From Clostridium sp. 28_17 (GTDB lineage: Bacteria > Bacillota > Clostridia > TANB77 > CAG-508): a DNA stretch of 64,000 bases. Positions 23,651-53,478 of this stretch are shown here, piece by piece. Within the stretch, counting starts at the first letter, position 1. Each line of letters starts with the position of its first letter. Where the stretch lies: contig MNRS01000019.1 in NCBI GenBank assembly GCA_001916065.1, forward strand, positions 31,948 to 95,947. The letters are read 5' to 3'. The notes beneath the pieces were generated by a model that saw only the letters and a list, made by a program, of their open reading frames with translations, did no database searches and had not been told where the DNA came from. A program made the position numbers and the translations under genes.

Positions 23651-24061
23651 ATGATATACGAATTTGAAGTACCAGGAAAAGTAATAGGAAAAGGAAGACC
23701 GAGACTAAACTCATACACAGGAGTAGTCTACACGCCAACAAGAACAAAAGACTACGAAGCATTAGTAGAACAATATTTTTTACTAAAATATCCACGATTT
23801 AAAGCCTTAGAAGGAAGAATAAAAGTAAATATAATAGCATATTTTTCAATACCAAAAACAACCAAAAAATCAGACATAAACGAAATGTTAGAAAACAATA
23901 TAAGTCCAACCAAAAAACCAGATATAGACAACATTGTAAAAGCAATTTTAGACAGTATGAACAAATTTGCCTTTAAGGATGATAATCAAATTACAAAATT
24001 AGAAGTAGAAAAGAAATATGCCATAGAAGATAAAGTTTATGTAAAAATAGAAGAATACTAA
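23651..24061 (+). CDS. rusA: RusA-family Holliday junction resolvase
   Basis: GKGRPR, YTPTRTKDYE, KKPDIDNIVKAILDS, AFKDDNQI motifs. Confidence 0.7.
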   Translation: MIYEFEVPGKVIGKGRPRLNSYTGVVYTPTRTKDYEALVEQYFLLKYPRFKALEGRIKVNIIAYFSIPKTTKKSDINEMLENNISPTKKPDIDNIVKAILDSMNKFAFKDDNQITKLEVEKKYAIEDKVYVKIEEY

Positions 24062-29673: not shown

Positions 29674-29717
29674 TATAAAGATTGACAAATATTAAGAATA
29701 TGAAAATAGTAATATTA

Positions 29718-29796
29718 GGGACTTTAAGGAGTGTCCCTTAATCCCGTTATAAAGGGATTTTAAGGAACGTCCCTAAATCCCTTCCGGGAGGAAAAA
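29718..29796 (+). promoter_or_regulatory. Structured 5' leader of rimO with duplicated 20-nt motif
   Basis: AAGGAGTGTCCCTTAATCCC (29727-29746) and AAGGAACGTCCCTAAATCCC (29762-29781) flank GGGATT; GGGAC at 29718 can pair with either GTCCC; last hairpin overlaps SD. Confidence 0.35.
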
Positions 29797-35931: not shown

Positions 35932-36823
35932 ATGGCACAAAAAACAACAAAAATACCAAGATTACCACTAACAGATGACTATATATTTAAAAGAGTATTT
36001 GCATTTGAAGGTAATGAAAGTGTTTTAAAGGATTTATTGGAGGCAATTTTAAGAAAAAATATTAAAAACGTAACAATAAAAAATCCAGAAATAATTCCAT
36101 ACGAAAGAGAAGATAAAAGAGGCCTTTTAGATATCAAAGCAGAAACAGATGATGGAACTGTTTTAGATATTGAGATGCAAATGGAAGACAAGAAAAATAT
36201 AGAAGAAAGAGGAACACTATATTTAGCAAATATGATAACAAGTCAATTACAAGTAGGAGATGATTATACAACTTTAAAAAAGAGTATTGTAATATTCATA
36301 ACAAATTATAATTTTTTAAAACGAAACAGTTATCATAGTATTGGAAAAATAAAATTTGACAAAACATTAAAAGAAGAATATGTAGATATGGGGTATAAAA
36401 CAGAAGATGAAGAAGCATCAAAATATATAGAATTCCACTACATAGAACTACCAAAATATAAAAAGAAAACTCAATCAGAATTTACAAAACTAGACCAGTG
36501 GATGTGTGTATTCACAAATCGAAAGGGGGAGATGATGTTGGCTGAAAAAGAGAATAAAGAAATAAAAAAAGCAATGAATACATTAGATTATATAAGTTCT
36601 GATCCAAAAGAAAGAGAAAGACATAATTCAGTAATAATGGATGAATATAATAGACTTACAAGTGAACAAAACTTTTTTGAAGCTGGAAAAGAAGAACGGA
36701 AAAAGGAACGGAGTAATAGAAACCGCAAAAGAAATGTTGAAGAAAAAATTATCAATTGATTTAATATGTGAAATTACAAAACTATCAAAAGAAGAAGTCG
36801 AAAAGATAAAAGAATCAATATAA
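35932..36823 (+). pseudogene. Rpn-family recombination-promoting nuclease/putative transposase (YhgA-like), frameshifted near 3' end
   Basis: N-term LTDDYIFKRVFAFEGNESVLKDLLEAIL...LDIEMQ typical of PDDEXK_7/YhgA; C-terminal helix part (ETAKEMLKKKLSIDLICEITKLSKEEVEKI) lies in a different frame (36641-36823). Confidence 0.6.
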
Positions 36824-40780: not shown

Positions 40781-41038
40781 TTAAAAACAAAAATGAAATG
40801 TAATCATCATTGTTGATTGTTTCAAAATTGTTACTTCTTGATAAAAAAGAATTTCAGGACTATACCCTAATGTTAATTCTAAAATCTTCAAAACCTCGGT
40901 TTTATTAACATATGGTACCTTTAAAACAGAAATTGTAACATCCTGATCATTTTTACCATTAAGTTTGAAAATTTTAATCTGATTTTTTATAATATCAGTT
41001 ACAATTTTCCGTTGTCTTTCAAGATCTTTTTCACTCAT
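40781..41038 (-). CDS. Small hypothetical protein antisense to the fab operon
   Basis: 85-aa ORF with strong AGGAGG RBS; followed by GGGGAGATATACCTCTCCCC hairpin plus T-run on the minus strand. Confidence 0.4.
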   Translation of the reverse strand: MSEKDLERQRKIVTDIIKNQIKIFKLNGKNDQDVTISVLKVPYVNKTEVLKILELTLGYSPEILFYQEVTILKQSTMMITFHFCF

Positions 41039-43002: not shown

Positions 43003-43434
43003 ATGTTAAATAAAGAAGAAATCAAAAAAATAATACCACAAAGAGAACCATTTTTAATGATAGACGAAGTAGAAGAATACAAACCAGGAGAAAGTTGTAC
43101 AGCATACAAAAATGTATCAGAAGAAGAATATTACTTCAAAGGTCATTTTCCAGGCAACCCAATTATGCCAGGAGTATTAATGGTAGAAGCACTAGCACAA
43201 ACAGGTGCAGTTGCAATACTATCACTAGAAGAAAACAAAAACAAAAACGCACTATTTGGAGGAATAAATAATTTAAAATTCAAAAAACAAGTAGTGCCAG
43301 GAGACAGATTAAAATTAGAGGTAAAAATCATTAAACAAAAAGGTCCAGTTGGTATTGGAGAAGCAATTGCAACAGTAGATGGAAAAGTTGCAGTAAAAGG
43401 AGAATTAACATTTGCAATTGTAAACAATAAATAA
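43003..43434 (+). CDS. fabZ: 3-hydroxyacyl-ACP dehydratase
   Basis: FKGHFPGNPIMPGVL; start MLNKEEIKKIIP. Confidence 0.9.
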   Translation: MLNKEEIKKIIPQREPFLMIDEVEEYKPGESCTAYKNVSEEEYYFKGHFPGNPIMPGVLMVEALAQTGAVAILSLEENKNKNALFGGINNLKFKKQVVPGDRLKLEVKIIKQKGPVGIGEAIATVDGKVAVKGELTFAIVNNK

Positions 43435-43437
43435 AAA

Positions 43438-43706
43438 TTCGGGATTAGGGGCCACTACATAAAATCCCTATTTTATAATATAGTTTTTAATTTATAGTTA
43501 TATATATTAAAAAGCCGTTCCTTACTGGTCGGAATAATCATATAAGATACGACAGATACATATCAAAGTAATATAAGTTAATCTGGCTAATCTGTATGAA
43601 TATGTTTCCTCCCAAACTGCGCGTCACTTTATTTTAATATATATAACTATAAAAAATAATTAATTAAATAAAAACGGGATTTTGTGTAGTGGCCCCTAAT
43701 CCCGAA
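43438..43706. mobile_element. MITE-like element: about 75-bp inverted arms with perfect 22-bp termini around about 120-bp core
   Basis: TTCGGGATTAGGGGCCACTACA 43438-43459 is exact reverse complement of 43685-43706; inner arms 43491-43513 vs 43633-43654 also inverted. Confidence 0.5.
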
Positions 43707-43733
43707 TTTTTAAGAATATGAAAGGAAAAGAAA

Positions 43734-45089
43734 ATGCTAAAAAAAATATTAATAGCAAATCGAGGAGAAATTGCAGTAAGAATAATAAGAGCCTGTAGAG
43801 AATTAGGAATAAGAACAGTAGCAGTATATTCAGAAATAGACAAAAACTCATTACACAAAGAACTAGCAGATGAGGCGGTATGCATAGGGCCTGCACCATC
43901 TAACAAAAGTTATTTAAATGTAAAAGCAATAATCGAAGCAGCATGTTTAACGGGATGTGATGGAATACACCCAGGATATGGCTTTTTATCTGAAAATAGT
44001 AGTTTTGCTAAAATGTGTGATGAAATCGGAATAAAATTCATTGGGCCTACTTATAAAATGATAGAACTAATGGGCAACAAGTCAAAAGCAAAGGAAACAA
44101 TGAAAAATGCAGGTGTGCCAGTTGTTCCAGGTTCAGATGGATTAGTTGATAATGTATTAGAAGCAATAAAAGTAGCATTGAGGATTGGATATCCTGTTAT
44201 TTTAAAAGCATCAAGTGGTGGTGGAGGCAAAGGTATACGAATTGCCTACAACGAAAAAGAACTTGTAAAATTTTATGATTTAGTAAGGCAAGAGGCCAAA
44301 ATTTCTTTTAATGATGACTCTATTTATATTGAGAAATTCATAGAAAATCCAAGACATATAGAAGTTCAAGTAATGGCAGACGAACATGGAAATGTAATAC
44401 ATTTAGGAGAAAGAGATTGTACTGTGCAAAGAAATAATCAAAAAATGTTAGAAGAAACACCTTCAGGAGTAATAACAGACAAATTAAGACAAAAAATGGG
44501 AAAAATTACTGTAAATGCCTTAAAAGAAATTGGATATAGCAATGTTGGAACAATTGAATATTTGCTAGATAAAAACAAAGATTTTTACTTTATGGAAATG
44601 AATACAAGAGTTCAAGTTGAACACCCTATAACAGAAACAATTACAGGTGTAGATATTATAAAAGAGCAACTAAGAATTGCGTCAGGAGAAAAGTTGCAAT
44701 ATAAGCAAGATGATATCAAATTTACAGGACATAGTTTAGAGGCCAGAATAAATGCAGAAAATCCATATAAAAACTTTATGCCATGTCCAGGGGAAATAAA
44801 AGAATTACATATACCCGGTGGAAATGGTGTAAGAATAGACACTGCAATTTATCCAGGCTATAAGATACCTCCTACATATGACTCTATGATAGCAAAGATT
44901 ATTGTACATGGAAAAGATAGAAATGAATCAATTGCGAAAATGAAAAGTGCATTAGGTGAATTTGTTATTGATGGTATTAGTACAAATATAGATTTTCTAT
45001 ATAAGATATTAGAAGACGAAGATTTTATTAATAACAATTATGATACATCTTTTATTGCTAAGAAATTTGCTAATAAGCTTCAAAGTTAA
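43734..45089 (+). CDS. accC: Biotin carboxylase
   Basis: MLKKILIANRGEIAVRIIRACRELGI; ATP-grasp. Confidence 0.9.
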   Translation: MLKKILIANRGEIAVRIIRACRELGIRTVAVYSEIDKNSLHKELADEAVCIGPAPSNKSYLNVKAIIEAACLTGCDGIHPGYGFLSENSSFAKMCDEIGIKFIGPTYKMIELMGNKSKAKETMKNAGVPVVPGSDGLVDNVLEAIKVALRIGYPVILKASSGGGGKGIRIAYNEKELVKFYDLVRQEAKISFNDDSIYIEKFIENPRHIEVQVMADEHGNVIHLGERDCTVQRNNQKMLEETPSGVITDKLRQKMGKITVNALKEIGYSNVGTIEYLLDKNKDFYFMEMNTRVQVEHPITETITGVDIIKEQLRIASGEKLQYKQDDIKFTGHSLEARINAENPYKNFMPCPGEIKELHIPGGNGVRIDTAIYPGYKIPPTYDSMIAKIIVHGKDRNESIAKMKSALGEFVIDGISTNIDFLYKILEDEDFINNNYDTSFIAKKFANKLQS

Positions 45090-45109
45090 TTATAAGATTT
45101 TTATAATTT

Positions 45110-45142
45110 TTCGGGATTGAAGACCCGTCCCCCAATCCCGAA
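45110..45142. repeat. REP-like hairpin of the TCGGGATT family
   Basis: TTCGGGATTG-N13-CAATCCCGAA perfect 10-bp stem; loop contains GTCCCCCAATCCC. Confidence 0.5.
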
Positions 45143-45187
45143 AAAATAAGCAAAAAAATATAAAAACTAGATACAAGGAGAAAAGCG

Positions 45188-46036: not shown

Positions 46037-46116
46037 ACCGAACAATGTTCGCTAAAAGATTTTATAAAATAAAATTTGGGGACATGACTTTTAATCCCAG
46101 TGAAAGGAAAATAAAA

Positions 46117-52328: not shown

Positions 52329-53426
52329 ATGATAATTGACATGTCATATTGGACAAGAGTTCTTAAGAAATTTTTATATGTTATACTAATATTAGTTGGT
52401 TTATTTTTTGCATTCAAACTAGCAATATTTTACACACCATTTTTAATAGCATTTATAATATCATTAATGGTAGAACCAGCAATAAGATTTATAATGAAAA
52501 AAATGAAATTTACAAGAAAAACAAGTTCAATAATAATATTTATAATTGTATCTGCAATAATAATAGGAGCAGTAGCGTGGGGGATAGTAGCACTTATTTC
52601 AGAGGCATCAAACTTATTGCAAGATTTAAATGGATATGTAGAAAAAGCATACATATTATTTCAAAATTTTACAAGTAAGTTTGATTTTAATAAAATTCAT
52701 TTACCAACCGAATTAACATCAATAATCCAAAACTCAACAGGTGATGTACTAACTTCAGCTTCAGGGTGGGTTAGAAATTTTTTGACAGGCTTATTAAATA
52801 TTATTACATCTATGCCATCTATTATAATATATTTTGTGGTAACAATTATGGCTTTATATTTAATATGTGTTGATAAAGTATATATTTTAGACCAAATAGA
52901 GCACCATTTTCCACAAAGATGGGTTTTTAAAGTTGGGACACACATAAAAGATTTAACAAAAACATTAGGTGGATATTTAAAAGCAGAAGCAACACTTATT
53001 TTAGTGTCTTTTATAATTTCTTTAATAGGATTATCTATATTAAAATTTGCAAATTTCAACATAGAATTCCCGTTATTAATGGCTTTATTTATAGGTTTTG
53101 TTGATGCATTACCAATTTTAGGTTCTGGAACAGTTATGATTCCCTGGGCTATTATTTCTGGTTTAAATGGAGATTTAAAATTAGGTATAGCAATTATTAT
53201 TTTGTTAATTATAATGTCAACAGTAAGACAATTTTTAGAACCTAAGTTAGTTAGTAAGCATATTGGTACGCATCCGATTTTTACACTAATTGCTATGTAT
53301 ACAGGTTTTAAGTTTATTGGCATTTTAGGTATGCTTGTTGGTCCTATTATTTTGATTATAATAAAAAATGTTTTTGCAACTTTGATAGATGAGGGAGTCG
53401 TAAAAAGTATTTTTGATAGAAATTAA
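52329..53426 (+). CDS. AI-2E family transporter (UPF0118/YtvI-like)
   Basis: Eight TM, conserved PWAII, FLEPKLV segment. Confidence 0.75.
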   Translation: MIIDMSYWTRVLKKFLYVILILVGLFFAFKLAIFYTPFLIAFIISLMVEPAIRFIMKKMKFTRKTSSIIIFIIVSAIIIGAVAWGIVALISEASNLLQDLNGYVEKAYILFQNFTSKFDFNKIHLPTELTSIIQNSTGDVLTSASGWVRNFLTGLLNIITSMPSIIIYFVVTIMALYLICVDKVYILDQIEHHFPQRWVFKVGTHIKDLTKTLGGYLKAEATLILVSFIISLIGLSILKFANFNIEFPLLMALFIGFVDALPILGSGTVMIPWAIISGLNGDLKLGIAIIILLIIMSTVRQFLEPKLVSKHIGTHPIFTLIAMYTGFKFIGILGMLVGPIILIIIKNVFATLIDEGVVKSIFDRN

Positions 53427-53428
53427 AA

Positions 53429-53463
53429 AATCGGGATTGAAGATTTGACTTCAAATTCCGATT
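53429..53463. repeat. REP-like hairpin, TCGGGATTGAAG family
   Basis: Shares 12-mer TCGGGATTGAAG with 45111; imperfect inverted partner CTTCAAATTCCGATT. Confidence 0.4.
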
Positions 53464-53478
53464 TTTATTATACTATAA

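Follow-up and report, generated by a model that had tools for sequence, protein, structure and literature searches.

A 64,000-nt stretch of the genome of Clostridium sp. 28_17, an uncultured bacterium of the human gut (contig MNRS01000019.1, positions 31,948-95,947), here called the window and numbered from its first letter, carries in the spacer between the genes fabZ and accC a 207-bp segment (43469-43675), enclosed by two inverted repeats of 31 nt. Both orientations of this segment occur in nature. The inversion is recurrent and conservative, bases being neither gained nor lost, and there is little doubt that the polymorphism is real. A programmed, enzyme-driven DNA-inversion switch (inverton), rather than a transposon, is on balance the probable explanation. 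That the switch alters the expression of the acc genes is a possibility somewhat short of an even chance, and the exact scheme of terminator and promoter outlined below is proposed with more reserve still.

Orientation of the segment in natural strains

Contigs were gathered by exact matches to the proteins FabZ, AccB and AccC, and by a scan of a metagenome collection for a junction pattern. The assembly collection lists the exact FabZ protein in over 1,000 blocks; the contigs read are gut metagenome assemblies. Twenty-three contigs, including the window, belong to the species under study: 18 feature the segment as found in the window (orientation A), three feature it inverted (orientation B: L010, L016 and L017), and two carry a short allele. 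Orientation B is found in 3 of the 21 long-form contigs, with fabZ, accC and both repeats unmoved. In L010, a 564-kb scaffold collinear on both sides of the switch, the interior reproduces window positions 43469-43675 in exact reverse complement, with 0 differences, and the spacer is still 299 bp long. In L016 and in L017 the interior departs from this reverse complement at a single position.

A single base tells where the exchange occurred. The left repeat, IR-L (43438-43468), and the right repeat, IR-R (43676-43706), differ at one position only, T at 43460 versus G at 43684 (the T/C marker), and in L010 and L017 this marker keeps its side, T being still in the left repeat and G in the right one. 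As the marker has not moved, the exchange must have taken place in the inner 8 bp of the repeats, within AAAATCCC (43461-43468) on the left and GGGATTTT (43676-43683) on the right; the left interval is bounded outwards by the fixed marker and inwards by the first moving base, 43469. The site of exchange can be read in L010 and L017 only, and in both cases it falls in these 8 bp.

Orientation B does not mark a monophyletic group: L010 has its nearest neighbours among the A contigs, with 99.6% identity. Since the contigs with orientation B are not each other's closest relatives, inversion must have occurred at least two or three times.

In L017 (1258-1656, - strand), about 65 nt into accC, the sequence gives way to an accC from another organism, higher in GC (about 65-71% identity); the foreign part is truncated at 132 aa and is followed by unrelated genes.

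Structure of the fabZ-accC spacer

The 22-nt ends of the element (43438-43706) are exact reverse complements, as initially annotated: TTCGGGATTAGGGGCCACTACA is found at 43438-43459 on the + strand and at 43685-43706 on the - strand. These are its only two copies in the window, and 100 shuffled sequences give 0 matches. The inverted symmetry reported to extend about 75 bp inward, around a core of about 120 bp, is also confirmed: the arms located by the repeat search (43432-43512 and 43632-43712) are 81 nt long, 85% complementary and 119 nt apart, and form by far the longest inverted repeat of the window. When the whole region is folded, as the initial annotation had suggested, the energy is -107 kcal/mol for the + strand and -112 kcal/mol for the - strand (z = -12.5 and -13). 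The GGGATT/AATCCC hairpins proposed for each terminus are indeed present at both ends, but they are weak (-6.6 to -10.2 kcal/mol, z from -0.4 to -1.9) and not clearly better than those of shuffled sequences.

IR-L consists of one hairpin unit resembling the repetitive extragenic palindromic (REP) sequences, TTC-GGGATT-AGGGGCCACTACATAA-AATCCC; IR-R is its reverse complement, with one mismatch, and both hold the same position in the two orientations. Inward of these outer repeats lies a conserved, asymmetric patch of 16 nt. The invertible interior, in orientation A in the window, is composed of an AT-rich inner left arm (43469-43512), a core of 119 nt (43513-43631) and an inner right arm (43632-43675); a perfect inner repeat of 20 nt, TATAGTTATATATATTAAAA, is found at 43493-43512, within the left arm, and at 43632-43651. 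Three parts may be told apart in the core: block 1 (43513-43545), a variable patch of 32 nt (43546-43577) and block 2 (43578-43631), the last with the direct repeat TAATCTG-NN-TAATCTG and the tract TTTCCTCCC. The TAATCTG repeat, considered as an operator that might be used elsewhere, is not enriched in the window, where block 2 has no other copy. On its own the core is unstructured (z = -0.2 and -0.9), and Rfam 15, searched on both strands, returns two chance-level matches only (E = 8-10). To our knowledge, there is no evident likeness to FapR or FabT operators. Two small reading frames in the core were set aside: a 13-codon ATG frame on the + strand, MNMFPPKLRVTLF, lacks a Shine-Dalgarno sequence and has nonsynonymous variants in L011 and L036, while a 21-codon frame following GGGAGG on the - strand lacks a usable start codon.

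The flanking genes had been correctly named: fabZ (43003-43434; PF07977) and accC (43734-45089; Biotin_carb_N, CPSase_L_D2 and Biotin_carb_C) both lie on the + strand, and their domains match. The accC ribosome-binding site, GAAAGGAAAAG, is located 13-23 nt past IR-R. The gene order is fabH-fabD-fabG-fabF-accB-fabZ-accC-accD-accA-fabI, all on the + strand, and the fabZ-accC spacer is presumably transcribed.

A family of hairpin repeats

IR-L and IR-R are each one copy of a REP-like hairpin family, GGGATT-N15/16-AATCCC, found also in neighbouring intergenic spacers: the pattern GGGATT-N8-30-AATCCC has 4 matches in the window, versus 0.01 expected. Of the mobile element initially supposed, the termini do belong to a dispersed family of small hairpins; the element as a whole was met only at this locus in the genome and metagenome scans.

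The copy in the accC-accD spacer (45113-45139), TTCGGGATT-GAAGACCCGTCCCCC-AATCCCGAA, has the stem of the fabZ-accC repeat and a related loop. Among strains, the length of this spacer (window 45090-45187, and its equivalents in L003-L012) ranges from 79 to 153 bp: one unit is present in the window; L009-L012 have two 33-bp units, inverted and separated by about 20-24 nt, and L007 has none, its spacer being of a different sequence. As judged from the sequences, a deletion between the 10-bp direct repeats TTCGGGATTG would turn the pair into the single-unit form.

Two direct units are found at 29720-29781 (the first at 29720-29750), in the spacer that follows a gene of the RNase E/G family (PF10150). 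These units, GGGACTTTAAGGAGTGTCCCTTAATCCC and GGGATTTTAAGGAACGTCCCTAAATCCC (within 29714-29787), closely precede the ribosome-binding site of the next gene, GGGAGG, and in each of them GGGAY is able to pair with GTCCC or AATCCC; they show no length variation, the spacer being 123 bp long in 7 other contigs. A degenerate copy is located in the accD-accA spacer (46074-46099), and a terminator-like variant at 53430-53462. The latter is part of a hairpin, AAAAAATCGGGATTGAAGATTTGACTTCAAATTCCGATTTTT, placed between convergent genes (53425-53466), with an A-run before and a T-run after it; its first 13 nt, TCGGGATTGAAGA, are the same as those of the accC-accD unit, and it may be a family member turned into a bidirectional terminator.

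Within the repeat, the segment TAGGGGCCA (43447-43455) resembles TTGGGGCCA, which we take to be the 9-bp repeat of the E. coli fim switch; because the crossover maps elsewhere, the likeness is probably a coincidence.

Conservation in related species

In a sister species, where FabZ is 92% identical as a protein and the flanking genes about 90% identical as DNA, a homologous spacer of 300 bp is found at the same site. Since the long form is present in both species, it is older than their split. The third codon positions of the flanking genes, 75-83% identical between the two species (about 78%), were used as a neutral yardstick. The outer repeats feature identities of 84-91% (IR-L) and 81-91% (IR-R). 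The inner left arm, with 73%, is near the neutral rate, while the inner right arm reaches 91%. Within the core, block 1 is conserved at 91-94% and block 2 at 98%; the variable patch, at 41%, is in effect replaced. Block 2 and the inner right arm together form a module of 98 nt (43578-43675), in which 93 of 98 positions are kept (95%; P about 4e-6 versus 78%). The arms have changed together: in the sister species an extra A on the left is matched by an extra T on the right, and a T:A pair is turned into C:G in both arms. In two sister-species contigs (L037 and L038) the right repeat fails to match the left one at several positions (GGAATTTTGTATGATGGTCCC, versus GGGATTTTGTGTGGTGGCCCC in L035); in this lineage the switch may be locked or in decay.

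In more distant relatives the slot between fabZ and accC is occupied by unrelated spacers of 54, 95 or 105 bp, or by a ToxN gene with a repeat array. Contigs L019-L026, from a related species with a 93% identical FabZ, feature an unrelated spacer of 95 bp, which reaches 105 bp in half of them through a 10-bp tandem duplication, GACAAAATAT. In L027-L034 (for example L029, 1324-2188), where FabZ is 89% identical, the next gene after fabZ is ToxN (PF13958, 186 aa), preceded by a 304-bp spacer with a strong promoter-like sequence, TTGACA..TATAAT, and about 3 tandem repeats of about 36 nt; L030 has one repeat fewer, the spacer being 265 bp long. This looks like a ToxI-type RNA antitoxin array, and so like a type III toxin-antitoxin system, in the slot corresponding to window positions 43435-43733.

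The short allele

The short allele lacks 200 bp (43511-43710), which include the core and the diverged inverted copy of the left arm. It is carried by L001 (the same as L012) and L002, two uncultured Clostridium/Clostridia metagenome-assembled genomes, which are not mutual nearest neighbours. The junction, TATATATTAA/TAAGAATATG, is devoid of microhomology, and the remaining spacer, 99 bp long, contains the complete left arm. This arm is identical to that of the species under study, and the flanking genes fall within its diversity. From these comparisons, the short allele is most simply seen as a later deletion. An ancestral empty site was considered and rejected on phylogeny: the sister species carries the element in its long form, and the left arm is the same as in this species. 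One end of the deletion falls no more than 2 nt from the top of the left arm, the other no more than 2 nt from the base of the right arm; this could indicate a deletion directed by the structure, or that the long form first arose by insertion.

A probable programmed switch and its possible effects

If the inversion is programmed, its mechanism may be outlined as follows. Two inverted 31-bp REP-like units bracket the 207-bp segment between fabZ and accC, which is flipped by a reciprocal exchange that lies, in the two inversions where it can be mapped, in AAAATCCC/GGGATTTT, on the inner side of the repeats. The exchange would be catalyzed by a site-specific recombinase encoded outside the window, like RecV for the switches of Clostridioides difficile, and the orientation would change the way in which transcription passes from fabH...fabZ to accC-accD-accA-fabI. 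In orientation A, that of the majority, unimpeded read-through from the fab promoter would supply accC-accD-accA-fabI, and the putative promoter of the segment would face fabZ. In orientation B, that of the minority, read-through would be attenuated at the left junction, where the IR-L hairpin is followed by UUUUUAUUU, while a candidate sigma-70-like promoter would aim at accC, leaving the acc genes uncoupled from the fab promoter. Modulation of accC, already suggested in the initial annotation, remains plausible, although by means of DNA inversion, which had not been considered there.

The signals on which this scheme would depend are the following. The only sigma-70-like site matching 10 of 12 positions, TTGATA-18-TATGAT, is located at 43537-43566 on the - strand; its direction is towards fabZ in orientation A, and towards accC in B. 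The IR-L junction hairpin gains a C-G pair in orientation B: its stem is 7 bp long, with 4 G-C pairs (-8.3 kcal/mol), and is followed by U5 (UUUUUAUUU), while in orientation A a 6-bp stem (-6.6 kcal/mol) is followed by UAUUUUAU. The sense RNA of orientation A is rich in C around CCUCCC (C>G), that of orientation B in G, and an orientation-specific effect of Rho is conceivable. Occlusion of the accC ribosome-binding site at the RNA level was discarded as a mechanism, the same giant hairpin and the same accessibility being predicted in both orientations. In L010 a split promoter-like site (TACACA-17-TATAGT, 9 of 12) lies across the junction between repeat and interior; it is weak, and is not used in the scheme.

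A number of observations weigh against a programmed, expression-controlling switch. Between 43 kb upstream and 20 kb downstream there is neither a tyrosine or serine recombinase nor a RAYT-type transposase. A terminator scan calls no site in either orientation, the loop of the junction hairpin being 16 nt long; promoter-like sites in the region are at or below the counts of shuffled sequences, and in the sister species the 10/12 site is gone, TTGAAA..CATGAC standing in its place. Folding predicts no difference between the orientations, either in the RNA hairpin or in access to the accC ribosome-binding site. Other copies of the REP-like family do not bracket invertible DNA, and recombination between the repeats could therefore be incidental. 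All of the sister-species contigs (4 out of 4) are in orientation A, two of them with a decayed right repeat. Finally, L017 is chimeric downstream of the switch, and so carries less weight.

The recombination-related genes noticed in the window are only two: a 'transposase' of the PD-(D/E)XK nuclease family (35932-36759; PF12784, E = 1.5e-44), about 7 kb upstream of the switch, and a RusA resolvase (23651-24061).

Alternative explanations

The element may instead be a REP-like doublet with a structural role only, in RNA or DNA, its inversion being an occasional neutral by-product of recombination or template switching; the long stem in the polycistronic mRNA would then act, between fabZ and accC, as a site for RNase III or other processing, or as a stability element. 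This explanation, although unlikely in our estimate, accounts for a good part of the data: copies of the family occur in three acc spacers in a row as well as at other places, strains differ in having one copy or an inverted pair in the accC-accD spacer, the arms are kept complementary by paired changes, and the giant hairpin is equally stable, with the accC ribosome-binding site equally accessible, in both orientations. It also agrees with the absence of a recombinase from the window, and with the short allele, which shows the core to be dispensable. It fits less well with the inversions themselves. The repeats offer only 22 + 8 perfect bases, near or below the minimum efficient substrate of RecA, yet at least two or three independent inversions are found in about 21 strains; moreover, both informative crossovers fall in the inner 8 bp, not in the outer 22 bp. 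The 16-nt asymmetric patch and block 2, unstructured and 98% conserved, are not needed for the stem.

The initial annotation had taken the element for a miniature inverted-repeat transposable element (MITE) inserted between fabZ and accC, a proposal that was to be abandoned for a single genomic copy or for a conserved spacer, and that falls on these very grounds. The perfect terminal inverted repeats, the existence of a shorter allele and the resemblance of the termini to a dispersed repeat family are in favor of a MITE, or of another non-autonomous transposon; all the same, such an insertion is very improbable. In a scan of one genome per species, covering 185,579 species, an 18-mer of the terminus, checked for the suggested copy number, is found at 2 places, both in the fabZ-accC spacer, in the two short-allele genomes, and the junction pattern finds in the metagenome collection the fabZ-accC locus only: the whole element occupies a single locus in both scans. 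The window contains no other copy of the whole element, and plasmids, phages and viral contigs contain no match to it; the core, which was no part of the genome scan, occurs once in the window and not at all in viral contigs. No target-site duplication is present, the flanks TAAAAA and TTTTTA being inverted, not direct. The short allele retains the whole left arm, unlike the product of MITE excision or an uninserted site. The comparison of orthologous spacers, also suggested initially, counts against a mobile insertion, since an orthologous element is found at the same site in the sister species. The interior, lastly, inverts in place.

That orientation B is an artefact of assembly is hardly credible: assemblers can be confused by inverted repeats, and L017 is chimeric about 65 nt inside accC, but B is found in three contigs from differing samples and projects, with a private difference in L016 and in L017, and the 564 kb of L010 are collinear on both sides; furthermore, repeats of 31 bp, within arms that are 15% different, should be spanned unambiguously by k-mers of at least 55, and 31 bp is less than the final assembler k in the k119, k127 and k141 contigs, where spanning k-mers would give the orientation.

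Possible significance

In its fullest form, the proposal of a programmed inversion describes a phase-variable switch in an essential fatty-acid/acetyl-CoA carboxylase operon, where sites derived from a REP-like family allow a 207-bp flip to couple or uncouple accC-accD-accA-fabI in subpopulations. We regard this full form as doubtful. If it were true, the supply of malonyl-CoA, and so membrane lipid synthesis, would be under heritable heterogeneity of the on/off type in a prevalent gut commensal, which might hedge in this way between making fatty acids and scavenging those of the host or of its diet, or tolerate stress targeting type II fatty acid synthesis (FASII). This would bear on the way in which Firmicutes balance de novo synthesis with the uptake of fatty acids from outside, and on how they tolerate FASII inhibitors. 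Known invertons mostly control capsules, fimbriae, flagella and restriction systems; phase variation by DNA inversion would then reach beyond surface structures, to core lipid metabolism. The element also indicates that REP-like hairpin repeats can act as the inverted repeats of an invertible segment, a possible route for the origin of switches. Even if no function is attached to the inversion, perfect terminal inverted repeats around a unique core prove insufficient for calling a MITE: here the comparison of strains decided.

A neighboring feature of the same cluster may be reported. Clostridial fab clusters usually have acpP between fabG and fabF. In this gap no open reading frame (ORF) resembling an acyl carrier protein is found on the + strand, and an 85-aa ORF on the - strand (40781-41038), which gene callers predict in every strain compared (84-87 aa), has no significant Pfam family.

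Comparison with known systems

The closest parallel is offered by the cwpV switch of Clostridioides difficile, which depends on RecV and consists of 195 bp between 21-bp repeats, with a terminator at the left-repeat junction (PMC2784873). Both are clostridial, both feature a segment of about 200 bp (195 versus 207 bp) between short inverted repeats, in DNA transcribed, or here presumably transcribed, downstream of a promoter and upstream of the regulated ORF, with the recombinase not adjacent; in both, orientation changes a hairpin followed by a U-tract at the left junction, a change that here is predicted. The likeness is one of layout, not of sequence. The repeats described here are 31 bp long, and are hairpin-forming REP-like units inside 81-nt arms; they are placed between two genes of a housekeeping cluster and not in the leader of a surface-protein gene, and the junction hairpin fails standard terminator criteria.

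The flagellar switch of C. difficile, upstream of flgB, has 154 bp in the mRNA leader and no functional promoter; it acts after the start of transcription, which Rho terminates in one of the orientations (PMC7446863, PMC5386303). Here, too, the invertible segment is small, and an effect of Rho is conceivable from an RNA that is C-rich in orientation A and G-rich in B; the target, in contrast, is a metabolic operon. In the PhaseFinder and DeepInverton catalogues, the genes near invertons are mostly those of surface structures, and fatty-acid genes are unmentioned (PMC11602134, PMC11892184). The literature searched reports no inverton within a fab or acc operon.

E. coli fimS and the invertible promoters of gut Bacteroides are likewise short regulatory segments between inverted repeats, whose orientation varies among cells or strains. 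As in fimS, one candidate promoter reverses here with the orientation, although it is weak and not conserved; the fabZ-accC element differs from fimS and from the Bacteroides promoters also in having no recombinase nearby, within the window.

With MITEs, such as Correia and RUP, the element shares terminal inverted repeats, small size and intergenic position, but it is found at a single locus, without target duplication, is orthologous across species and inverts in place.

The REP, BIME and REPIN sequences of Proteobacteria are short palindromic hairpins, located in intergenic or intercistronic regions, often as inverted pairs, and varying among strains between unit and pair. The family described here resembles them, by description, in its dispersed palindromic units, in its inverted pairs and in the variation of strains between one unit and a pair. 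It differs from them in sequence and in the lack of a RAYT gene in the window; in the fabZ-accC spacer, moreover, the two units of the pair are 207 bp apart, and enclose a conserved interior that inverts.

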